A DNA stretch of 27,343 bases. Origin: a virus (taxonomy: Duplodnaviria; Heunggongvirae; Uroviricota; Caudoviricetes). A program made the position numbers and the translations under genes. This document shows, piece by piece, positions 4,073-23,020 of this stretch (its first letter is position 1; each line of letters opens with the position of its first letter). Location: IMG/VR virus record IMGVR_UViG_2695420565_000003; one strand, 5' to 3'. Under the pieces are notes generated by a model that saw only the letters and a program-made list of their open reading frames with translations, had not been told where the DNA came from and ran no database searches.

Positions 4073-5584
4073 ATGTTTAATCTTTTTCGACGCAAAAAGG
4101 CGGTAGAAACTCCAGTTAAAACTAATCACCGCCAGCAACAACCAAAAATTTTCATCGATAAGCAAGTAGAAAAATTCCAGAAAGACCTATCTCAACGGAG
4201 TTTAGGACTGGTTGGTGATCGTATTGATGGATCACTTCAACAAGACACCATTACAGGAACCTTCAATAAGGCTCTCAAATCGAACGGTAAGCGCCTTTAT
4301 GATCAGGGTCGTACTCTGGCCTTAAACACTTCCGTAGGCAGTCGCTACACGCAATACATCACCGATATGGTGGTAGGTACTGGCCTAGATCCGAAGCCGT
4401 CAATCGTTAAATCGAATGGCAAACTTGATAGCGCACTGAATAAGCAGATCGAAAATGCTTTCTGGAAGTGGGCGCAGAATGCTAAACGATTCTCTCGTAA
4501 CGGTCGCTTTAACTTCCGTGAATTGCTGGTAATGGCTGAACGTGAGCGCGTTATGGGTGGTGAGTGCTTCATCGTTTTAACCAAAGAAAACAATGAGTTA
4601 AATGTTTCTATCCTGTCTGCTGATAAGTGCGACTGGTCGCTAAACCGTGAAATAAGCAAAGAGCGTGCGATATATCAAGGTGTGGAGTATGACGTAGAGA
4701 CGATGAAGCCCGTAGCATACTGGTTTCGTAAAATCAACCTACTGACTCAGACCTACACTGGTGATAACTATCGCGTCGATGCTTCGCAAGTATGCCATTA
4801 TTATCAACCACTTACAGCCGAATCCCTGCGTGGTGTGACTGACTTCCTGCCAGTGATCAAGGATATCGCACATCAAGACGCATTCCGCGAAACTGCGATC
4901 GTCCAGAAACGTATTGCAGCTAGCTCTATGGGCTTTATCGAACGTCCGAAAGATTCTGGTGACGATTTTGATACTGGTGAAGATGATGAACAATATCAAG
5001 CGCCGGAAGTAGTACAGGATTTTGCACCGGGTACTATTCAGGAATTACCGGAAGGGGCAACGATCAAGAGCATCCAGGCGACGCAAAGCGGTGATGACTT
5101 CAATTCGTTCAATGATGCGATGTTTACTAGCGTATCAATGGGCTTAGGCGTGTTCAAACAGGGCTTAACGGGAGATTGTTCACAGATCAACTACTCAGCC
5201 GCACGTTTTGGTGAACTACTTCAACGTAACCGCGTTAAAGCACTTCAAAACAAATTGATTGAAACAGTGGTGTTGCCAATTTTCGAAGCATATCTACGCC
5301 ATTATTCCGCGCGTGGTATGGTTCCGATTCGTATTACTGCAATTCCGCATATTATCGATAATACAACTATTATTCGTCCGCGTTTTGAGTCCGTCGATGT
5401 TATTAAAGATGTGAACGCTGATATTGCTTTAATTGATAAGGGACTTAAATCACGTACTGCCGTTATATTAGAACGTGGTGATGATCCTGAAAAAGTATTC
5501 TCAGAGATTCAAGCCGAAAAGAGCGCACTAAATATTATCGTTGATGGTGAGGGTGAAGAAAAAAATTCCCCAGCCGATCCCTAA
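4073..5584 (+). CDS. Portal protein
   Basis: 503-aa ORF immediately downstream of TerL and upstream of the protease/capsid gene. Size and position are typical of portals. RBS AAGGGGTAAAT. Assigned mainly on synteny. Confidence 0.75.
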   Translation: MFNLFRRKKAVETPVKTNHRQQQPKIFIDKQVEKFQKDLSQRSLGLVGDRIDGSLQQDTITGTFNKALKSNGKRLYDQGRTLALNTSVGSRYTQYITDMVVGTGLDPKPSIVKSNGKLDSALNKQIENAFWKWAQNAKRFSRNGRFNFRELLVMAERERVMGGECFIVLTKENNELNVSILSADKCDWSLNREISKERAIYQGVEYDVETMKPVAYWFRKINLLTQTYTGDNYRVDASQVCHYYQPLTAESLRGVTDFLPVIKDIAHQDAFRETAIVQKRIAASSMGFIERPKDSGDDFDTGEDDEQYQAPEVVQDFAPGTIQELPEGATIKSIQATQSGDDFNSFNDAMFTSVSMGLGVFKQGLTGDCSQINYSAARFGELLQRNRVKALQNKLIETVVLPIFEAYLRHYSARGMVPIRITAIPHIIDNTTIIRPRFESVDVIKDVNADIALIDKGLKSRTAVILERGDDPEKVFSEIQAEKSALNIIVDGEGEEKNSPADP

Positions 5585-5629
5585 TAACCAACGGGGGCGC
5601 AATGCCCCCAATTAATTAAAGGTGATTAA

Positions 5630-7639
5630 ATGCTTAAATTTCGCCGCGATCTTAACGGTTACGGTGGAGTTATTAACGAAGGGCATAACGATCAATACGA
5701 ATTTGAAATTGCTTTCTCCAGTGAACAGCCGTATCAGCGCCAATTCTGGGATGAGCAAAATCAAGAGATGGTGGTATTAGATGAAATTCTGGTACATACC
5801 CCGGAAGCGGTTGATCTGTCTCGTCTGAATAATAACGCTCCGTTGCTGTTCAATCATAATTTCGATAATCACATTGGTGTCGTTTGTAACGCTCGAATCG
5901 ATGCGGATAACGTAGGTCGTGCTCTGGTTAAATTCTCTAAGCATGGCACTTTGGCTAATGATATTCGCAATAAAGTCATTGAAGGTACGATGGAAAAAAT
6001 TTCTGTCGGTTATGACATTAAAGAATATCACATCGACTACACCAAAGGACAATTGATTGTTACTAAGTGGGCACCCTATGAACTCTCATTTGTCACCGTT
6101 CCCGCAGACGATACGGTCGGTTTAAATCGCTCTCTAAATACTATCACAGTTAATTTGGAGGCTAAACGCGATATGACTAAAGAACAAATCGAAGAAATCA
6201 AAGAAGAACAAGAATCCGCTCAGGTTGAAGAAACTCCGGTAGAAGAAAATAAAGAATCGGAAGTAGAAGAAACTCAAGAGCGCCAAGTTGAAGAGAATAA
6301 AGAAGATGAAAATCTCGAAGACGGAAAAGACGCTGAACATCCTGAAAGTGTTGATGATGATAGTTCAACTGTTCGGGAAACAGAAGAAGTAAAAGAAGAA
6401 CGTGAAGCTGCTCCGGTTGAAGAAGAAAAAATCGAAGAAGTGGCTGAACGTTCCGAAGAAGACGAATTAGAAATTCGCGAGATCGCTCGCGAACTTCTAA
6501 TTGACGACGAAGAATTGAAACGCGCATTGGCAATTAAAGACATGACGCCGGAAGCATTCCGCACTAAGGCACTAAATAATCTCGTCAATGCTCAACGTAA
6601 TAACGAACAACAAATTAAGGACTCTAAAATGGAAAAAACTTTTGACCTGAACAACGTAATTCGCTCTCTGGTAGATGGTGAAGCTCTGGGTGCTAACGAA
6701 GCCGAGTTTTCTGCAATGGCTGCTACTGCAACTATGCAGCGTGGTCGTGCTGCTCGTGGTGGCTCTGTATTCGTTCCGGCTGCTGCTATGCGTGCTGCTG
6801 CTGCTGGTAACACCAAAGCTACTCTGACTGCTGTTACTGATGAAAAACTGCTGACTGAATCCTACATCGAAATGCTGCTTCCTGCTTCGTGTCTGGGTCG
6901 TCTGGGCGTGACCGTCCTGTCTGGTCTGAATAGCCCGATCGCTGTTCCGAAAATGACTGCTTCTAGCGTTGAAGCCTTTGGTTTTGTTGATGAAAATGGT
7001 GCTGCCCCCGAGTCACATGCGGAATTTTCGAACGTGAAAATGGCTCCGAAAACTTTTGCTGGTGGCAACCCGATCAGCCGTCAATCTCTGAAAACTGTTC
7101 CTAATATCGCTACCCTGATCACTGATCACATTAACAAAGCTGTTCGCATCAAACTGGAACAACTGATTCTGTCTGATAAAGAAAATGCTCGTGGTCCGGC
7201 TGGTCTGGTTAAACAACTGGTAGACGCTAGCCGCGTGACTAAGAAAACCGCTTTCAGCTACAAAGACCTGTTGAAAGAGATTGCCGCATTGACCGACGCT
7301 GGCGTTCCTGCTCAGGCGATCAAGTTCGCTATGAGTGGTGCAACTGCTGCTGAACTGGAATCTACCCCGAAATCTGATCGTGGTGACGCTCAAGGCTTCA
7401 TTATGGAAAACGGCAAAATTGCTGGTTATGAAGTAGTTACTTCTGGCGTTATTCCGGCAGATACGATCGTTCTGGGCGATTTCAGCGGCATTATCGTTGG
7501 GGAATGGGGAGGTCTTGAGCTAGATCTGGACGATTCAACGTACCGTGCACAGTCTGCGATCGTGCCTCGTGTATGGCTGGATTTGGACTACGTTGTAGCA
7601 CAGCCGGAAGCTCTGAAAGTTCTCCAGATTGGCGAATGA
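5630..7639 (+). CDS. Fused prohead protease (HK97/S78-type) + acidic scaffold/delta region + major capsid protein
   Basis: The N-terminal ~170 aa carry HK97-protease-like motifs ('LLFNHNFDNHIGVV', 'KISVGYDI', 'YELSFVTVPADDT'). A highly acidic E/K-rich coiled-coil segment follows, then a ~330-aa capsid-like C-terminus. It is one uninterrupted frame. Stop is TGA. Confidence 0.85.
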   Translation: MLKFRRDLNGYGGVINEGHNDQYEFEIAFSSEQPYQRQFWDEQNQEMVVLDEILVHTPEAVDLSRLNNNAPLLFNHNFDNHIGVVCNARIDADNVGRALVKFSKHGTLANDIRNKVIEGTMEKISVGYDIKEYHIDYTKGQLIVTKWAPYELSFVTVPADDTVGLNRSLNTITVNLEAKRDMTKEQIEEIKEEQESAQVEETPVEENKESEVEETQERQVEENKEDENLEDGKDAEHPESVDDDSSTVRETEEVKEEREAAPVEEEKIEEVAERSEEDELEIREIARELLIDDEELKRALAIKDMTPEAFRTKALNNLVNAQRNNEQQIKDSKMEKTFDLNNVIRSLVDGEALGANEAEFSAMAATATMQRGRAARGGSVFVPAAAMRAAAAGNTKATLTAVTDEKLLTESYIEMLLPASCLGRLGVTVLSGLNSPIAVPKMTASSVEAFGFVDENGAAPESHAEFSNVKMAPKTFAGGNPISRQSLKTVPNIATLITDHINKAVRIKLEQLILSDKENARGPAGLVKQLVDASRVTKKTAFSYKDLLKEIAALTDAGVPAQAIKFAMSGATAAELESTPKSDRGDAQGFIMENGKIAGYEVVTSGVIPADTIVLGDFSGIIVGEWGGLELDLDDSTYRAQSAIVPRVWLDLDYVVAQPEALKVLQIGE

Positions 7640-17454: not shown

Positions 17455-17498
17455 AGCCCCATAGTGATAAATAATCATAAAACTATGGGGGCTTTTTC
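17455..17498 (+). terminator. Terminator after the tape measure gene
   Basis: AGCCCCATAGT ... ACTATGGGGGCT stem with a 16-nt AT-rich loop, followed by TTTTT. Confidence 0.55.
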
Positions 17499-17499
17499 T

Positions 17500-18060
17500 A
17501 TGTTCAAATCCAAGAATATTAAAATCACAGATTTTACTCTTAAATCAAAACAGCCTTTCTTCAAGGCGCAATCTATATCCGGTAAGTTCCAGCGTCGCTT
17601 TACTGGCATCCATTTTTACGAAGCAGAATTTACCGCGAATTTCATGGCTCAGGATATTAACGAAGTAAAAGAATTTGTAGCACGTCACCTTTTTGGTCGT
17701 CCTTTCAATGTACCACTGTCTTACTTTTCAAAATATACAGGTGATGTACGCCAGATGGTAACGGCTGCTGCTGGTACTGCTCGCGGTGGGCGTAAGGTGA
17801 GAATCTCCAACTTCACCGGAACACTGAAAGCGGGAACTATCATCCAGTTTGAGAACCACAAGAAAATCTACACGATCACCGAAGATGTGAAATCAGGTGG
17901 TGAAATGAAACTCTTCCCTAACTTGCGTCAGAACGTCCTGGCGGGTGAGGTGATCAAGTATCAGAACGTAGAAGGTGAATTTGTTCTCAAAACTGAAAAC
18001 ATCGATTGGAAGATCGCCCAGATCGGCAAGATGAAATTTGAATTAGTGGAGAATGTATAA
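17500..18060 (+). CDS. Minor tail protein (lambda gpM position / distal tail protein)
   Basis: The track ORF starts at 17464 inside the terminator hairpin. ATG 17500 (MFKSKNIK...) is the likelier start, though ATG 17485 is possible. Assigned by synteny. Confidence 0.55.
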   Translation: MFKSKNIKITDFTLKSKQPFFKAQSISGKFQRRFTGIHFYEAEFTANFMAQDINEVKEFVARHLFGRPFNVPLSYFSKYTGDVRQMVTAAAGTARGGRKVRISNFTGTLKAGTIIQFENHKKIYTITEDVKSGGEMKLFPNLRQNVLAGEVIKYQNVEGEFVLKTENIDWKIAQIGKMKFELVENV

Positions 18061-18713
18061 TGGCAACTATTCAGGAATCATTCAGCAAACTATGCACTAA
18101 TCTGGACTTCATCGAGGTATACAACGACCAGACAGGTCAGAATGTGTCTAGATTGACTCTACCGCAGCTTTTTTCCACTGGATCGATGTTCCACATTATC
18201 GAAGTAGTAACCGCGTCAGGGGACGTTTTACGGCTTACAGACGGGTACTTCGATTTGGACTATAACGGATTTACGTATCTCGCAACGGGTGATTTTCTTC
18301 AAATCTCATCGAATACCGAAGAGAAGGAGATCAACAACAACGGGATCAACGTAACTGTTTCTAACGTCCGCGAAGAATACATTACCTTGATTCGTAACAA
18401 GCAATTCGATAAATCTGATGTGAAAATCGAGATGGTTTTCCTGAACCCTAACACGGGCAAGGTTGAAACTACTTACCCTGTTTTCCGTGGGGTAGTCGAT
18501 TCCATCGGGATTAACATCGAACATGAAGATGAAGAGTGTAAAAACGAATCAGAATTTCAGCTTAATAGTATCTGGGAAGTTCTAGATAAAAACGCTCGTA
18601 GTCATGCTTCCGATGGTATCCACCGATCCTATGTTGGAAACGAGAACGATCTATTCTTCTCCCGTGCCGGGAAGTGGCAAAGCGAGTCGAAGTGGTTTAG
18701 CTCTAAGAAATAA
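18060..18713 (+). CDS. Minor tail protein (lambda gpL position)
   Basis: 217-aa ORF whose start overlaps the upstream stop (ATAATGG). Assigned by synteny within the M-L-K-I/J block. Confidence 0.55.
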   Translation: MATIQESFSKLCTNLDFIEVYNDQTGQNVSRLTLPQLFSTGSMFHIIEVVTASGDVLRLTDGYFDLDYNGFTYLATGDFLQISSNTEEKEINNNGINVTVSNVREEYITLIRNKQFDKSDVKIEMVFLNPNTGKVETTYPVFRGVVDSIGINIEHEDEECKNESEFQLNSIWEVLDKNARSHASDGIHRSYVGNENDLFFSRAGKWQSESKWFSSKK

Positions 18714-18759
18714 TCCCTTCTCCCTAAGCCTAGTAAATAACAGCATGGAGGTATTCAAC

Positions 18760-19179
18760 ATGCTAAAAACTAGGCTTATCACCGATTACATCAATTCTTT
18801 AATAGGTCAGGAGTTCGTTCAGGGTGAGAATGATTGCAATCTCATTGCATGTAAGATCATCGATATTCTCGCTGGTACTGACCTATATAATTCTCTTTAT
18901 AAAAAATATTCAACTAAAGAAGAAGGCTTGAAAATCTGCAAAGAATTAAGCGGGTATTCAAACATCCTTCAACCAATTAAGAAACATTTCAAATTAGTCA
19001 CTGATGATTTACAGGACGGCGACTTACTGGTCACAGCCCACAAATTAGGAAACCGTAATTATTATTCCGTAGTTCCTCATTATTCCGGTTATGGCCTCGT
19101 TGAAGAAGATGGTATCTGGATGACCATTCCTGTTTCAGACATTGACTATGAACAAGTTTATAGATTCGGGGGTGAATAA
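18760..19179 (+). CDS. Tail assembly protein, lambda gpK-like (possible NlpC/P60-type Cys/His peptidase fold)
   Basis: The track ORF starts at 18604. ATG 18760 has a GGAGG RBS 8 nt upstream. It contains 'ENDCNLIACKI' (candidate catalytic Cys) and 'VVPHYSGYG' (candidate His). Assigned by synteny. Confidence 0.5.
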   Translation: MLKTRLITDYINSLIGQEFVQGENDCNLIACKIIDILAGTDLYNSLYKKYSTKEEGLKICKELSGYSNILQPIKKHFKLVTDDLQDGDLLVTAHKLGNRNYYSVVPHYSGYGLVEEDGIWMTIPVSDIDYEQVYRFGGE

Positions 19180-22100
19180 TGGGATTTGAAATATTGGTAG
19201 GCGCGGTTATTGCTGGTGCGTCTGCTGGGATGGCTGCTGCTGCAACATTTTCTGTTATGACCGCAGTCGCTATCGGTATGGCTGCTGGTGCAATGACCTT
19301 GATCGCTTCCACTGTAGGCGCACCAAAAACACCGAAAGTACAAAGCCCAGATAATGCGGTGACACTAGGAACATCAAACGATCCTAAGACAGTATTACCC
19401 GTTCTTTTCGGTACTACCCGCACAGGTGCAATCTGCGTTTACAAAGCAATTTCTAAGCAAGAAAACAATAAGTTAGTGCAAATCTTCGCAATTGCCGAGG
19501 GTGAAATCGACCATTACAAAGCACTGTTTATCGATAACAAAAATGTTCTTGTTGGTAAGAACATGACGATCCGTGATGGTGTACTGGACAAAGGCAACAT
19601 TAAAGAAGAATACCGGAAAGTTTTAGAGGTTGAGTTCCGCACGGGTAAGAATCCTAACACCGCTTTGTCACTGGCAAAACGTCACTTAGGGTCAGACTGG
19701 AACGACAACTACAAAGGCAATGGTATTGCAACCATGTGTATTGTGTTACGCCGTGATGATAAATCTCTTGCTGCTGGTGTTGATATTCTCCAACCAAATA
19801 GCCAGGTAGCGGTCGATGTTATGGGCTTAAAAATCCGTAACCTTGAAACCAATGCTATTGAGGCTAGCACTAACGGCGTGGACCAGATTTTCCACTACCT
19901 AACAAATGAAAAATATGGCTTATCCGTACCAATTGAAAACATTAACGTTGATTCATTCCTGAAAGTACGTAAGCAAGTACGTCAGATGGACCTACATTCG
20001 AACGGTGCATGTGATCCGAACGCCAGCTTTAAAGAGAACTTGACTAGCCTTATGCAGACTTTCGGCGGGGTGATGTTCGAATCCTTCGGAAGAATTACCC
20101 TGAAACTGGATGCTCCTGATATTGTTAAGCATACATTCAATGAAGACAATATCATGATGGGTAAGGTATCACTGAAAACAGGTGGCACTAACGGTTATTT
20201 CAATACCATTAACGCGATGTATCAAGAACCATCAATTGACTATTCAGAGCAAATGCTACGTTATCCGGCTGATGCTGAAAACGATGCTACTATTCGTCAA
20301 GATGGTCGAATTATCGCTAAGGATATCGAATATCGTTTTGTTAAGTCTAAAGCCCAGATTGATAAACTTGCGAGCATTGAACGAAATAAATCTCGTATCA
20401 CTCAGGTTATCAGCTTTATGACTACTGACGCATTCACTGCCGAGGTGTGGGATGTTATCAGCGTAACCTATGATGAATTAAAACTGAATAATTCACTTTG
20501 GCGTATTACTGCAATTGACCGCTCGATTGATTCTGGTATTGCTGGGATGATGACGATCACCGCCACAGAATATAATTCTCAGGTTTATACTGACCTGAAC
20601 TATGCGGCTAACCCAGATAACCGACCAAGTGGTTTACCGGATTCAATGACAGTACAGAAGCCTACTAATTTCAGAATTAAGGCAACTGGTGAAACAATCT
20701 ATGGTAAGAACGTTACTTTAACATGGGATGCGCCGGAAGATTTTAACCGCTACGGCTTCCAGATTGATTACCGTGTTAGTGGATCGCCTAACTGGATTAA
20801 GCTGGGACAGACTTCACAGCAAATTTTCAGTGTCAGTGCACTGGCAAAAGATCGTTCTTATGATTACCGAGTTTGTGCTTTCGGTATCATCGCGAGATCT
20901 GATTGGGTAGAACTGATTAACCAGAATCCTACTGTTACCTATGAATTACCGACTCCGGTTATTCGAATCAAAAATCAGGGTAGCACGCCAGGAACTTTCG
21001 AAGGTAATGATCTGATTATCGAATGGGAAAATCAGCAACAATTAGATGTGATGATCAACGGTGAAACTAACAAGTTTAGTGACCTGTTTGAAGCATACAT
21101 TATCAAGGTGACTAACAAGGCTGGTAAGTCTATTCAGTACCGTACCCGCGATCCTGAATCATGGACTTATACACTTGATATGAACCAGTTTAACGGCCTT
21201 TCGCGACAACTTACGGTAGAAGTATCGGCTAAGGGCTATAACAACTCAGAGAGCGCCCCAGCGCGTTTAGTGGCTATTAACCCACAGCATAAAGGTATTA
21301 AAGGTTTTAGTGCGCGTGGTGGTTTTAATGCTGCTTTCGTTAGCTGGAACGGTGATGTTCTGGAACAGGACTATGCTGGGACGATTGTACAATTTGCAAC
21401 CGATAGCACTTTCTCCGATGCAAGGGCGGTAAGCACGAATAGTGTTAGCCATACATCTTTCGACTTGACGGACGGGGATTATTATCTTCGCGCGGCACAT
21501 TACGATATTTTCGGTATGGATGATGCTGTTTGGTCTGAACCGTATTTCATGCAAATGAAATCTACCATTAGCTGGGACGATCAGGACAAAGAAGCACTGG
21601 AAGACCTGATCGGTTTACAAGATCGATTAGATGAAACTATCGCGGATGCTATTAAGCAAGCTGGCGCTAATGCCGATGCTAAAATTGATGCAATGCATAA
21701 GCAAATCACTACTGAAACGGGTAAAACAGTTCAAGCCTCAGCCGATACTCTCAAGAGTCTGATTGCTTCTGGTGATAAGGCAAGTTCAACTAAGATTGAT
21801 CAGGTTAAAGCTGAACTGAAAGGCGATATCACCAAAGAAGTTAGTGCATCTGCTACTACCCTGAAACAAGCTATTGCTACCAGTGAGGCAGCAAGCGCAA
21901 CTAAGATTGATCAAGTTCGGGTAGAAATGGATGGCAAGATTGCTGGTGTGAATCAGGAAGCAGATGTAAAAATCGATGCTTTGAAGGGAACCATTAACAG
22001 CAAATATAACCTGGCAGTTAATGCAGATGGTCGCGTGGCTGGTATTCACATGAGCGCAAGCAATGATCCGGCACAACCGACTAAAATCATCTTTACGGCT

Positions 22101-22958
22101 GATAAAATTGCTGTAGCTCCGCAGAATGGGACCGATGTTTGCCCGTTTGGTATCGAAGGTAACAAGGTTTATCTCGATAATGCGATGATTCGTAATGCTG
22201 CAATTGGTACAGCCCAGATTAATGATGCGGCAATTACTACCGCTAAGATCGGCAATGCTGCAATTAACAGCGCGAAGATTCAGGACGGGGCAATCACTAA
22301 CGCCAAGATCGTAAACGGTGCTATTGATAATGCCAAAATTGGTAACTATATCCAGTCTTCCAACTGGAACGGATCTACCGGATGGCATATCAACAAGAGC
22401 GGGTCCGCTACGTTCATGAACGCTACCGTTAAAGGTAATATCACGGCTGATTCTGGTACTCTGAACAACGTCACGATTAACTCTAGCTGTGTTATTAAGG
22501 GTATGCTTGAAGCTACTCAGGTTAAGGGTGATTTCGTTAAGGTGATTGGTCGTAAGTTCCCGCACCGTGATGTTAACGTTGATAATGGTTATGCTGGCTA
22601 TCCACAGGGTACGGTCACTGTTCGCGTTGAAGATGATCACAAGTTCGATCGTCAAATCGTTATTCCGGCAATTAGTTTTGGTGGATTGCGAGCGCGTGAA
22701 GGGTCGAACAATAATACCTATTACGACACATGTCGCCTGATTGTTCGTAAGAATGGGTCAGAGTTGTATAATAGGGCGTATGGCGGTAATACTGGTCTTT
22801 ACTCAGGTGTTATTGATATGCCAGCGGGTAAAGGTGCTGTGACCTTGACCTTTGAAGTGCAATCAAGCGCAATCAACAACTGGACGCCTAGCACATGGAT
22901 CAGTGATTTAACTGTAATGGTAACTAAAAAAGCCACTACGGGTATTACTGTTTCTTAA
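19179..22958 (+). CDS. Central tail fiber / host specificity protein (lambda gpJ-like) with an N-terminal gpI-like segment
   Basis: 1259 aa. The N-terminus is a hydrophobic Gly/Ala-rich segment followed by 'PKTPKVQ...VLPVLFGTTRTG', resembling the lambda gpI C-terminus. The C-terminus 'GTLNNVTINSSC...DDHKFDRQIVIPAISF...VIDMPAGKGAVTLTFEV...TVMVTKKATTGITVS' resembles the lambda J receptor-binding end as I recall it. Confidence 0.85.
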   Translation: MGFEILVGAVIAGASAGMAAAATFSVMTAVAIGMAAGAMTLIASTVGAPKTPKVQSPDNAVTLGTSNDPKTVLPVLFGTTRTGAICVYKAISKQENNKLVQIFAIAEGEIDHYKALFIDNKNVLVGKNMTIRDGVLDKGNIKEEYRKVLEVEFRTGKNPNTALSLAKRHLGSDWNDNYKGNGIATMCIVLRRDDKSLAAGVDILQPNSQVAVDVMGLKIRNLETNAIEASTNGVDQIFHYLTNEKYGLSVPIENINVDSFLKVRKQVRQMDLHSNGACDPNASFKENLTSLMQTFGGVMFESFGRITLKLDAPDIVKHTFNEDNIMMGKVSLKTGGTNGYFNTINAMYQEPSIDYSEQMLRYPADAENDATIRQDGRIIAKDIEYRFVKSKAQIDKLASIERNKSRITQVISFMTTDAFTAEVWDVISVTYDELKLNNSLWRITAIDRSIDSGIAGMMTITATEYNSQVYTDLNYAANPDNRPSGLPDSMTVQKPTNFRIKATGETIYGKNVTLTWDAPEDFNRYGFQIDYRVSGSPNWIKLGQTSQQIFSVSALAKDRSYDYRVCAFGIIARSDWVELINQNPTVTYELPTPVIRIKNQGSTPGTFEGNDLIIEWENQQQLDVMINGETNKFSDLFEAYIIKVTNKAGKSIQYRTRDPESWTYTLDMNQFNGLSRQLTVEVSAKGYNNSESAPARLVAINPQHKGIKGFSARGGFNAAFVSWNGDVLEQDYAGTIVQFATDSTFSDARAVSTNSVSHTSFDLTDGDYYLRAAHYDIFGMDDAVWSEPYFMQMKSTISWDDQDKEALEDLIGLQDRLDETIADAIKQAGANADAKIDAMHKQITTETGKTVQASADTLKSLIASGDKASSTKIDQVKAELKGDITKEVSASATTLKQAIATSEAASATKIDQVRVEMDGKIAGVNQEADVKIDALKGTINSKYNLAVNADGRVAGIHMSASNDPAQPTKIIFTADKIAVAPQNGTDVCPFGIEGNKVYLDNAMIRNAAIGTAQINDAAITTAKIGNAAINSAKIQDGAITNAKIVNGAIDNAKIGNYIQSSNWNGSTGWHINKSGSATFMNATVKGNITADSGTLNNVTINSSCVIKGMLEATQVKGDFVKVIGRKFPHRDVNVDNGYAGYPQGTVTVRVEDDHKFDRQIVIPAISFGGLRAREGSNNNTYYDTCRLIVRKNGSELYNRAYGGNTGLYSGVIDMPAGKGAVTLTFEVQSSAINNWTPSTWISDLTVMVTKKATTGITVS
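21682..21990 (+). repeat. In-frame tandem repeats (~111 bp / 37 aa units beginning 'KID') within the J-like gene
   Basis: 'KIDAMHKQITTETGKTVQASADTLKSLIASGDKASST' is followed by 'KIDQVKAELKGDITKEVSASATTLKQAIATSEAASAT' and then partial units 'KIDQVRVEMDGK...' and 'KIDALKG...'. Confidence 0.5.
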
Positions 22959-22978
22959 AAATTTAATTTTAATAATTA

Positions 22979-23020
22979 ATCCCGCTTAATTCTTTTGAGT
23001 TAGGCGGGATTATTTTTATC
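22979..23020 (+). terminator. Terminator after the J-like gene
   Basis: AATCCCGC ... GCGGGATT 8-bp stem with an 18-nt loop, followed by ATTTTTAT. Confidence 0.55.

Follow-up and report, generated by a model that had tools for sequence, protein, structure and literature searches.

The tail tips of long-tailed phages and related particles are laid out in different ways. In lambda the L, K, I and J proteins are separate, while the GTA and R4C tips are composed of a small hub and a megatron, and in T5 there is a single pb3 chain. Lambda gpI (tail tip assembly protein I, or TAPI) is a stand-alone protein of about 200 residues that is encoded between K and J and is represented in PDB entries 8IYK, 8XCG and 9E7M. 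Its C-terminal half, referred to as TAPI-C, consists of two hydrophobic helices, a plug loop and LPVxYGxxRxG strands. In the stretch of DNA considered here (the window, i.e., all 27,343 nucleotides of a Caudoviricetes record), a sequence-only reading pointed to a gpI-like segment at the N-terminus of a J-like protein, next to a short K-like gene, and took this arrangement to be a rearranged tip-assembly module. The question is therefore whether the likeness is genuine and, if so, whether the arrangement is a recent fusion or an older design. The relevant features, all on the + strand, are:

15020..17449, +, tape measure protein of 809 residues (position, size, coiled-coil composition)
17464..18060, +, distal tail protein (Dit) of 198 residues (phrog_1302 "distal tail protein", E=1.6e-16; weak match to the T5 pb9 B domain; conserved position)
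18060..18713, +, small hub protein (hub domain I / attachment domain) of 217 residues (Phage_phiJL001_Gp84_N; phrog_2048)
18760..19179, +, DUF6950 protein of 139 residues with a predicted NlpC/P60 fold (Pfam DUF6950; predicted structure)
19179..19322, +, hydrophobic Gly/Ala-rich stretch, residues 1-48 of the 1259-residue protein (hydropathy; profile-aligned to gpI 105-155)
19320..19370, +, plug-loop counterpart, residues 48-64, APKTPKVQSPDNAVTLG (BLASTP and profile alignments)
19386..19457, +, strand motif (L/I)P(V/I)(V/I)(Y/F)GxxRxG, residues 70-93, KTVLPVLFGTTRTGAICVYKAIS (equivalent to gpI 190-212)
19464..20588, +, baseplate-hub core of the hub domains II-IV type, residues 96-470 (AF2 pLDDT about 80-90; Foldseek; profile)
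20589..21620, +, middle region between hub and fibre with fibronectin-III-like repeats, residues 471-814 (weak fn3 match at 508-570; phrog_25032, phrog_5616)
21621..22958, +, lambda-type central tail fibre and C-terminal receptor-binding domain, residues 815-1259 and stop codon (Pfam, BLASTP, PDB)

The open reading frame at 19179-22958 (+) encodes 1259 residues and begins with the sequence quoted in the sequence-only reading. Its residues 48-107 align to lambda gpI 156-223 with 35% identity (E=4e-7, BLASTP with composition adjustment). A single-sequence phmmer search of residues 1-120 against the PDB gave only a marginal match (E=0.03), and profiles were therefore used. With a 5-sequence profile the gpI chains were found at E=4.7e-5, and with an 18-sequence profile, built from fused proteins alone with gpI left out, at E=2.4e-7 to 1e-6, followed by the next match at E=0.47. 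Because the alignment to 9e7m is limited to profile positions 41-96, these E-values do not depend on residues 1-47. The gpI family PHROG 32 was also matched, over profile positions 100-200 of 203 (E=1e-3). At the level of sequence, these comparisons confirm that residues 1-95 (19179-19463) are homologous to TAPI-C (gpI ~100-213). The gpI sequence given in the sequence-only reading agrees with the real one, and the alignment to gpI that had been named as a check on the idea yields significant similarity.

A likeness by chance or composition, i.e., to any N-terminus that is hydrophobic and rich in Gly and Ala (a membrane anchor or a signal-like peptide, for instance), would fit with the low complexity of the first 48 residues, the absence of Pfam and NCBIfam matches to residues 1-100 and the phmmer value of 0.03. 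This explanation is nevertheless scarcely credible, considering that the significant, composition-adjusted alignment lies in the non-hydrophobic residues 48-93 and that the gpI-free profile retrieves gpI chains alone (E~1e-7). The Pfam silence has a simple origin. The Lambda_tail_I model (PF06805), which a Pfam search did not detect in the 1259-residue protein or in its residues 1-100, scores lambda gpI at E=1.1e-28, but covers gpI 14-97 only, i.e., the ubiquitin-like domain. It is this N-terminal domain that is missing here; the C-terminal half of gpI alone has a counterpart in the 1259-residue protein.

The two segments are alike in their succession of two hydrophobic helices, a P-x-x-P...D plug loop and LPVLYGxxRVG strands, and both are encoded directly before a J-type hub core. 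They differ in that gpI is a separate protein of 223 residues, while the prophage segment forms the N-terminus of the hub chain, where the loop between plug and strands is shorter by about 6-8 residues. Residues 1-48 include the hydropathy maximum of the whole chain (Kyte-Doolittle 19-residue means of 1.4-1.9), are long enough for two membrane helices and, from the profile alignment, are the counterpart of gpI helices H1/H2 (about gpI 101-155). An AF2 monomer model gave no confident structure for residues 1-63 (pLDDT <50), as expected of a segment that is ordered only in a trimer or a membrane. Residues 48-64, APKTPKVQSPDNAVTLG, correspond to the gpI plug loop (gpI ~156-175, APKARTPRIQTTDNG), of which residues 159-175 have been defined as the plug in lambda (PMC11101478); P52 and D58 do not vary among close relatives. 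The strand motif is found in most relatives, with P74 and G78 invariant among 18 diverse fused proteins, and aligns to residues 262-280 of T5 pb3, KFIPVVYGVQKIPGIPIF.

Several observations show that this segment belongs to one continuous chain. When the window was searched in six frames, lambda gpI matched this open reading frame alone, which bears out the claim that there is no separate I gene, and lambda K, L and M gave no match. From the last gpI-like strand to the first J-like strand there are only about five residues, and the chain is covalently continuous. In the AF2 model, strands 79-83 and 85-91 (pLDDT 84-87) are joined to strands 98-107 and 110-118, together at pLDDT 84-90. The start codon is coupled to the stop codon of the 139-residue gene by a TAATG overlap, and a check for internal starts found none preceded by a Shine-Dalgarno sequence at residues 2-140. 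The sole candidate start for a separate J protein, a GTG at codon 100, lacks a Shine-Dalgarno sequence and was rejected. Nothing was found in favour of an assembly or sequencing artefact, i.e., a frameshift or a lost stop codon joining two genes. The same continuous reading frame is present in independent complete genomes, a cultured phage and dozens of IMG/VR contigs, which leaves this explanation with almost no probability.

The part of the protein that follows the segment is of mixed affinity. The start of the hub core, LVQIFAIAEGEI, can be matched by eye to LLSVIDAISEGPIEG of lambda gpJ, and Foldseek retrieved T5 pb3 (E=1.2e-25, TM 0.68-0.71), DT57C (4e-24), lambda gpJ (~1e-16) and the RcGTA megatron (5.7e-16); Chi was also matched. 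A profile retrieved T5 pb3 from the PDB at E=6.3e-18, in an alignment that begins exactly at the IPVVYG motif; the GDP-fucose synthetase matches of the same profile are false positives from a chimeric sequence (P0017) and were set aside. Pfam Phage-tail_3 scored 20 bits, below its cut-off of 23. The hub part is thus nearer to T5 pb3 than to lambda gpJ. The C-terminal part, in contrast, is of lambda type, with Pfam matches to Phage_Tail_Tip (PF09327, E=3.6e-20) and Ig_GpJ_C (PF12421, E=3.8e-34), 31% identity to lambda J over residues 950-1258 (BLASTP) and matches to gpJ fragments in the PDB at E=5.6e-54 (9wca, "A8 gpJ 713") to 1.3e-34. NF049904 (lambda_TipJ) scored 204.9 bits over residues 1069-1259 only, against a cut-off of 1950 bits for a full-length TipJ. 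A full-length TipJ includes the domains FNIII-A_GpJ, Ig_J and Ig_J_second. A Pfam search for PF24801, PF24421 and PF24489 found none of these in the 1259-residue protein, while lambda J matches all of them strongly. The description "J-like" therefore holds by sequence for the last ~310-440 residues, but not for the hub part.

Collectively, these data lead to the main reading, to which a probability of roughly 0.8 is assigned: the 1259-residue protein is the large baseplate-hub and central-fibre protein of a siphovirus-type E. coli prophage, and its first ~95 residues are a cis-encoded equivalent of lambda TAPI-C.

The genes upstream complete the module. The 217-residue protein matches Phage_phiJL001_Gp84_N (PF09931) at E=7.6e-6, with 26.6 bits against a cut-off of 26, and phrog_2048 "tail protein" at E=1.4e-27; RefSeq names for this protein are "baseplate hub domain-containing" or "DUF2163", and it is regarded as the counterpart of lambda gpL and RcGTA g13. 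For the 809-residue protein, a homologue in one genome carries the RefSeq name "phage tail tape measure protein". The gene of 139 residues at 18760..19179 is indeed short for a K gene. Its fold was predicted because sequence searches of the PDB (phmmer and profile) gave marginal matches to RipA/YiiX only; the prediction was made from a shallower alignment obtained by protein search. The predicted fold is papain-like, with the invariant Cys26 of DUF6950 probably at the catalytic position, while DUF6950 as a family does not conserve the canonical NlpC/P60 histidine, which is apparently replaced in the window protein. A literature search on DUF6950 found nothing.

From its predicted structure, the 139-residue protein shares with lambda gpK the NlpC/P60 fold and a cysteine that is probably at the catalytic position, and both are encoded between a small hub gene and an I/J-type gene. 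In contrast to gpK, which is composed of JAB/MPN and NlpC/P60 domains and matches Prok-JAB, the prophage protein has a single domain without JAB, and the family histidine is unconserved. Prok-JAB matches were also absent from all 17 relatives. The fold and the position suggest that it is the positional counterpart of the NlpC/P60 half of gpK and of RcGTA g14. As to the label "K-like", what stands is a shortened counterpart of K with an NlpC/P60 fold; what does not is kinship by sequence, as BLASTP found no similarity to gpK and the family is DUF6950.

An alternative is that the segment is made within the hub and then cut off in tail maturation to yield a separate gpI-like peptide, with the DUF6950 protein as the candidate enzyme. 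Processing has precedents in the lambda tail, where gpH is converted to gpH* (PMC12617516), and gpK has been predicted to process gpI (Iyer et al., PMC1779556). The putative catalytic Cys26 and the translational coupling of the DUF6950 gene to the hub gene are also in line with cleavage. However, the ~5-residue linker is modelled by AF2 as a tight hairpin, the N-terminal domains of RcGTA and R4C are modelled in the same megatron chain as the next domain, the T5 pb3 motif is internal to one chain, and the NlpC/P60 histidine is apparently replaced, as described above. Such a cleavage is consequently considered unlikely.

The age of the arrangement can be judged from its distribution. The whole region is found in 54 of the 57 matching E. 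coli genomes, and the fusion is intact in these 54 complete genomes as well as in distant relatives, which disposes of the sequencing error that the sequence-only reading had named as a possible source of the fusion. A megablast search of phage genomes with the module found nothing, and tblastn identified phage DCP80 as the sole near relative (40.6% identity); the N-terminus of the 1259-residue protein recurs in DCP80 and in metagenomic homologues. An HMM search of all libraries gave 19 matches, mostly to proteins of 1150-2300 residues with the segment at residues 1-~97; two proteins (P0016 and P0023) were discounted as repeat proteins whose weak matches add up. Of 39 distinct relatives in IMG/VR, with identities as low as 21%, 38 match the TAPI-C profile at their N-terminus, and the gene order Dit, DUF2163 hub, DUF6950, large hub is kept in relatives. 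The fusion is not recent, and practically every relative that can be detected has kept the arrangement.

These findings bear directly on the proposal that a lambda-type K-I-J module was recently rearranged, i.e., that deletion of the ubiquitin-like half of I, of the I-J intergenic region and of the JAB half of K produced a lineage-specific I-J fusion. In its favour are the clearly lambdoid character of the C-terminal fibre and receptor-binding domain, the lambda-family genes for head, portal and terminase, and earlier descriptions of TAPI-TAPJ fusions in prophages (Iyer et al., PMC1779556). However, relatives down to 21% identity share the N-terminal architecture, the hub core resembles T5 pb3 more closely than gpJ, and the genes in the places of L and K come from other families (DUF2163 and DUF6950), without detectable similarity to lambda L or K. 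The lambda-like part is limited to the fibre, in agreement with modular fibre exchange rather than a deletion within the module, and these data suggest a clade apart from lambda-type J proteins and from those with a stand-alone I gene. A recent rearrangement is accordingly very improbable, and the earlier notion of a rearranged module gives way to an architecture of four genes (Dit, DUF2163 hub, DUF6950, large hub) that is distinct, old and conserved, and is of the RcGTA/R4C kind.

The likeness to these particles extends to several levels. Around the megatrons of RcGTA (g15) and roseophage R4C (PDB 6TBA/6TEH, 8GTC) the order is the same, i.e., Dit, PF09931/DUF2163 small hub, NlpC/P60-type protein and large hub, and the prophage has the GTA-type split hub, with a separate small PF09931/DUF2163 hub upstream and a small NlpC/P60-type protein between. 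The megatrons and the 1259-residue protein each have a hydrophobic Gly/Ala-rich N-terminus followed by an xGRxRVxGxVIW-like strand, and the hub core fold of the RcGTA megatron matches that of the prophage. By sequence, any relation between the N-terminal segments is at most putative: a comparison by hhalign of the 18-sequence profile with the RcGTA and R4C N-termini gave a probability of 9.3% and E=0.0035, in register (57-98 against 53-89), and the megatrons are absent from the PDB matches of this profile at E<=10. The megatrons have a fibre-binding domain where the prophage protein has the lambda-type central fibre and receptor-binding domain, and the RcGTA/R4C small hub has a 4Fe-4S site that is lacking in the prophage small hub, which has only two Cys residues.

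T5 and DT57C pb3 (PDB 7ZHJ, 7ZQP, 8HQZ) offer the best match to the prophage hub core in both sequence and fold and, like the prophage protein, carry the strand motif (IPVVYGxxxxxG) in the same chain as the hub. The T5 plug first seals the tube and later touches the outer membrane, as that of the prophage would by analogy. The systems differ in that the pb3 chain includes hub domain I (the gpL equivalent), which the prophage encodes as a separate small hub, and in that the pb3 plug is an internal insertion that refolds to a beta-hairpin, while the prophage plug element is an N-terminal hydrophobic helix pair. No K-type NlpC/P60 protein is listed in the T5 tip complex as published, while the prophage encodes its DUF6950 protein.

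Fusions of TAPI to TAPJ in prophages, and NlpC/P60-only versions of K that accompany such variants, were noted by Iyer, Burroughs & Aravind in 2006 (PMC1779556). Those fusions involve the whole TAPI, including the ubiquitin-like domain, and differ in this respect from the prophage protein, which has TAPI-C only and is partnered by DUF2163 and DUF6950 proteins rather than by lambda L and K.

In lambda, gpI 135-223 forms a trimeric plug under the C-terminus of gpH and is bound to gpJ by beta-sheet augmentation (PMC10721106). Upon binding of LamB, the plug opens and H1/H2 become invisible; their insertion into the membrane is still a proposal in these studies (PMC11101478; PMC12617516). The same role has been proposed in the literature for the N-terminal iris/penetration domains of the RcGTA and R4C megatrons. 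By transfer from lambda, T5, RcGTA and R4C, three copies of the prophage segment would reside inside the tip cone of the virion, with the conserved strands zipped into the hub beta-sheets, as in the lambda gpI-gpJ augmentation in trans. The PKxPxxxSxD loop would plug the lumen and prop the C-terminal helices of the tape measure protein, which, judging from lambda gpH 818-849 and T5 pb2C, would be the partner resting on the plug. When the lambda-type receptor-binding domain meets its outer-membrane receptor, the hub domains would swing out and free the plug, and the two N-terminal hydrophobic helices may then enter the outer membrane, anchoring the tube or lining a pore. This membrane step would allow first the tape measure protein and then the DNA to exit. 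A segment that is made within the hub would do without the ubiquitin-like carrier domain of gpI and without the JAB half of gpK, both of which are absent here. A strict rule, by which a lack of the ubiquitin-like domain entails a lack of JAB, is weakened by a locus (L080) where a TAPI-C protein with an additional N-terminal domain is found beside a JAB-less NlpC/P60 protein.

In lambda and T5 alike, the plug element is followed by the LPVxYGxxRxG strand. This supports the view that gpI is not simply a chaperone of assembly but a part of the hub that has become detached. It is possible, although put forward here tentatively, that the single chain of TAPI-C and hub core is ancestral, that the lambda I/J boundary is a later fission through a beta-sheet that is now completed in trans, and that the gpI ubiquitin-like and gpK JAB domains originated, or were co-opted, solely for carrying and subsequently releasing a very hydrophobic plug peptide once it had become separate.

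The plug-in-hub arrangement is an old and widespread tail-tip design, and its occurrence here is real but ordinary; current understanding is not overturned, since TAPI-TAPJ fusions (PMC1779556) and megatron N-terminal hydrophobic domains were already known. What the finding provides is a sequence-level bridge among the lambda, GTA/R4C and T5 tail tips, which were hitherto compared only structurally. For annotation, the N-terminus of such "phage tail tip protein" genes can be labelled a TAPI-C-like plug or membrane-insertion segment, and DUF6950 an NlpC/P60-fold tail protein. A prophage family without the gpI ubiquitin-like and gpK JAB domains is also a convenient system in which to ask what these domains are for. 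Should the single chain prove to be ancestral, this family would be a natural "minimal" control, in which the pair of ubiquitin-like and JAB domains is dispensable for the function of the plug itself.

The sequence-only reading had proposed a gpI-like segment at the N-terminus of a J-like protein (its first ~90 residues), i.e., the 1259-aa large hub / central fibre protein, which is encoded in the following stretch of tail genes.

15020-17449 (+): tape measure protein, 809 aa, assigned by position, size and composition
17464-18060 (+): distal tail protein (Dit), 198 aa, phrog_1302
18060-18713 (+): small hub protein, 217 aa, PF09931 / DUF2163 attachment domain
18760-19179 (+): DUF6950 protein, 139 aa, assigned by Pfam
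19179-22958 (+): large hub / central fibre protein, 1259 aa

The residues quoted in that reading are present in the window, and the proposed resemblance is borne out. Residues 48-107 align with residues 156-223 of the actual lambda gpI sequence at 35% identity (E=4e-7). In the PDB, a five-sequence profile of the segment found the gpI chains of lambda tail-tip structures (E=4.7e-5), as did an 18-sequence profile built solely from fused proteins (E=2.4e-7 to 1e-6; next match, E=0.47). PHROG 32, the gpI family, is matched over its C-terminal half, and the profiles of PHROG 31 ("central tail fiber J") and PHROG 5616 likewise include the gpI-like segment. Pfam gives no match on the segment because its Lambda_tail_I model spans only gpI 14-97, the ubiquitin-like domain. 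Residues 1-48 form the hydropathy peak of the protein, with room for two membrane helices. Judged from these alignments, the segment is real and equals the C-terminal half of gpI alone, named TAPI-C by Iyer et al. (PMC1779556); the likeness does not extend to the ubiquitin-like half. A separate I gene is indeed absent: across all six frames of the window, lambda gpI matches the 1259-aa ORF only, and lambda K, L and M find no match.

Neither a sequencing error nor a recent accident can account for the fusion, because the ORF is unbroken in independent complete genomes (annotated as a single "phage tail tip protein"), in the cultured Escherichia phage DCP80 and in Salmonella and metagenomic homologues of 46-85% identity, and because codons 2-140 contain no in-frame start preceded by a Shine-Dalgarno sequence. 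The hub-gene start overlaps the stop of the DUF6950 gene (TAATG), behind a GGGGGTGA motif, and this overlap suggests translational coupling. In 38 of 39 distinct IMG/VR relatives, whose hub cores reach as low as 21% identity, the TAPI-C profile matches the N-terminus; the remaining one is truncated by the end of its contig. An exhaustive search of 1.84 billion representative proteins with an HMM of the segment gave 19 matches, two of which (P0016 and P0023) were discounted as repeat proteins whose weak repeats sum to false matches. Most of the others are 1150-2300 aa long with the segment at residues 1-~97, and a few are shorter or partial. Another protein from this search, P0017, is a chimeric sequence in which a hub N-terminus is joined to GDP-fucose synthase, and it yields spurious PDB matches for that reason.

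The designation "J-like" applies to only part of the protein, i.e., likeness to J by sequence is confined to the last 310-440 residues (Phage_Tail_Tip, Ig_GpJ_C), where residues 950-1258 are 31% identical to lambda J. The NCBIfam TipJ model matches residues 1069-1259 only, with a score far under its cut-off. A profile of residues 1-470 matches T5 pb3 (E=6.3e-18), in an alignment that begins exactly at a shared strand motif (pb3 262, "KFIPVVYGVQKIPG"). An AF2 model of the same residues (mean pLDDT 75; 80-90 from residue ~70 on) also has T5 pb3 as its best Foldseek match (E=1e-25, TM 0.7), followed in order by Chi, lambda gpJ, JBD30, the RcGTA megatron and T1. The hub core is nearer to T5 pb3 than to lambda J, and the protein has a mosaic build, with a hub like those of T5 and GTA and a fibre of lambdoid type. 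Modelled strands 79-83 and 85-91, the gpI-like ones, are followed, after a turn of about five residues, by the first J-like strands (98-107, 110-118). Because these strands are consecutive and lambda gpI contacts gpJ through beta-sheet augmentation (PMC10721106), the boundary between the lambda I and J genes seems to cut apart adjacent strands that here sit in one chain. Compared with lambda J, both PDB 9wca, "A8 gpJ 713" (E=5.6e-54), and the J proteins of ompW-integrated and Stx prophages (37% identity) are much nearer to the receptor-binding end (22380-22958 (+), residues 1068-1259).

The neighbour described as a short K-like protein is short (139 aa) and next to the hub protein as claimed, but it has no sequence similarity to gpK and no useful match in the PDB by sequence. 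It and 16 diverse positional homologues are all DUF6950 proteins; none has a JAB domain, and two give a weak NLPC_P60 match. The mechanical ORF begins at 18604 (18604-19179, +) and overlaps the hub gene; RefSeq and the homologues favour 18760.

The order Dit, DUF2163 hub, DUF6950, large hub is kept in most relatives and matches that of RcGTA and R4C (Dit, hub g13, peptidase g14, megatron g15). In these megatrons an N-terminal hydrophobic "iris/penetration" domain closes the channel and has been proposed to enter the outer membrane (PMC7296036, PMC10276861). Their N-termini, taken from PDB sequences, have the same layout, in which a Gly/Ala-rich helix precedes "...GRMRVAGQVIWA"; the match between profiles is weak (probability 9%, E=0.0035) and in register. 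A four-Cys iron-sulfur cluster is described for gpL of lambda and for the hub proteins of RcGTA and R4C (PMC10721106, PMC10276861); with only two cysteines, the small hub here (18060-18713, +) is unable to form one.

Other layouts were also found. In the IMG/VR relatives L034-L048 (hub 47-53% identical) DUF6950 still immediately precedes the hub gene. In the stretch from the tape measure gene to DUF6950 no Dit or DUF2163 hub homologue was detected, only one ORF of 156-162 aa; either these proteins are very divergent or the tip has another composition. In L080 (4660-13059), a farmland metagenome phage, the hub is split elsewhere: a gpM-like and a gpL-like protein are followed by a JAB-less, NlpC/P60-only K (125 aa), a 352-aa protein composed of an unknown N-domain, TAPI-C and FNIII-A_GpJ (the first gpJ domain), a 78-aa ORF and a 2091-aa Phage-tail_3 protein. 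Phage DCP80 (L002, GenBank PQ671644) is classed as Straboviridae/Gaprivervirus, yet has this tip module of siphovirus type; at the places expected for Dit and DUF6950 (4116-4699 and 5363-5916) there are unannotated gaps.

The window is an E. coli prophage. Its region 17400-23000 is matched at 80-97% identity in 57 of 5426 complete E. coli genomes and is present whole in 54 of these; in one genome the prophage adjoins a serine recombinase gene that borders hicB/ydcR. IMG/VR contigs with the region are ~35-38 kb long. The head genes are of the lambda family (gpA terminase, lambda-type portal, fused S78 protease-capsid protein), the fused protein being a single 669-aa chain (5630-7639, +) with prohead serine protease S78 (40-162) and HK97-type major capsid (413-666) domains. 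A side-fibre-like gene (9453-13067, +; 1204 aa) lies after the head genes and ahead of the lambda-like tail tube gene (13125-13598); its product has a trimerisation domain of the T4 Gp34 type (E=3.7e-24) and, at the C-terminus, a Peptidase_S74 intramolecular chaperone domain (E=8.5e-14). Directly 3' of the tube gene, an unusual site for an adhesin-type gene, is one for a 168-aa protein (13773-14279, +) with a Gp38 adhesin N-terminal domain (E=3.9e-15).

The observed homology to TAPI-C, covalent continuity with the hub, conservation and module context can be set beside published structures, by analogy with which the three N-terminal segments would lie inside the tip cone, with the conserved strands built into the hub sheets. 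The lumen would be plugged by the PKxPxxxSxD loop, which would also bear the tape measure protein's C-terminal helices, as lambda gpI 159-175 carries gpH 818-849 (PMC10721106, PMC11101478) and the T5 pb3 plug carries pb2C. Receptor binding by the lambda-type C-terminal domain may then open the hub and free the plug, after which the two hydrophobic helices could reach the outer membrane (PMC11101478, PMC12617516). Iyer et al. predicted that JAB strips the ubiquitin-like domain from gpI (PMC1779556). The joint absence of both domains fits this prediction, and a plug made in cis would need neither; the correlation is not strict, since in L080 TAPI-C carries an extra N-terminal domain beside a JAB-less NlpC/P60 protein.

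That TAPI is fused to TAPJ "in some prophages", and that K proteins with NlpC/P60 alone exist, was pointed out in 2006 (PMC1779556). The hydrophobic gate domains at the N-termini of megatrons were reported in 2020 (PMC7296036) and 2023 (PMC10276861), and structural comparison led in 2023 to the proposal that gpL + gpI + gpJ-N are equivalent to T5 pb3 (PMC10721106). The additions made here are modest, i.e., sequence-level proof that the hub N-terminus of this prophage family is TAPI-C without the ubiquitin-like domain, a strand motif common to this N-terminus and T5 pb3, and a predicted NlpC/P60 fold of DUF6950. A description that fits the arrangement better than a rearranged tip-assembly module is that of a distinct and old architecture onto which a lambda-type fibre has been grafted.
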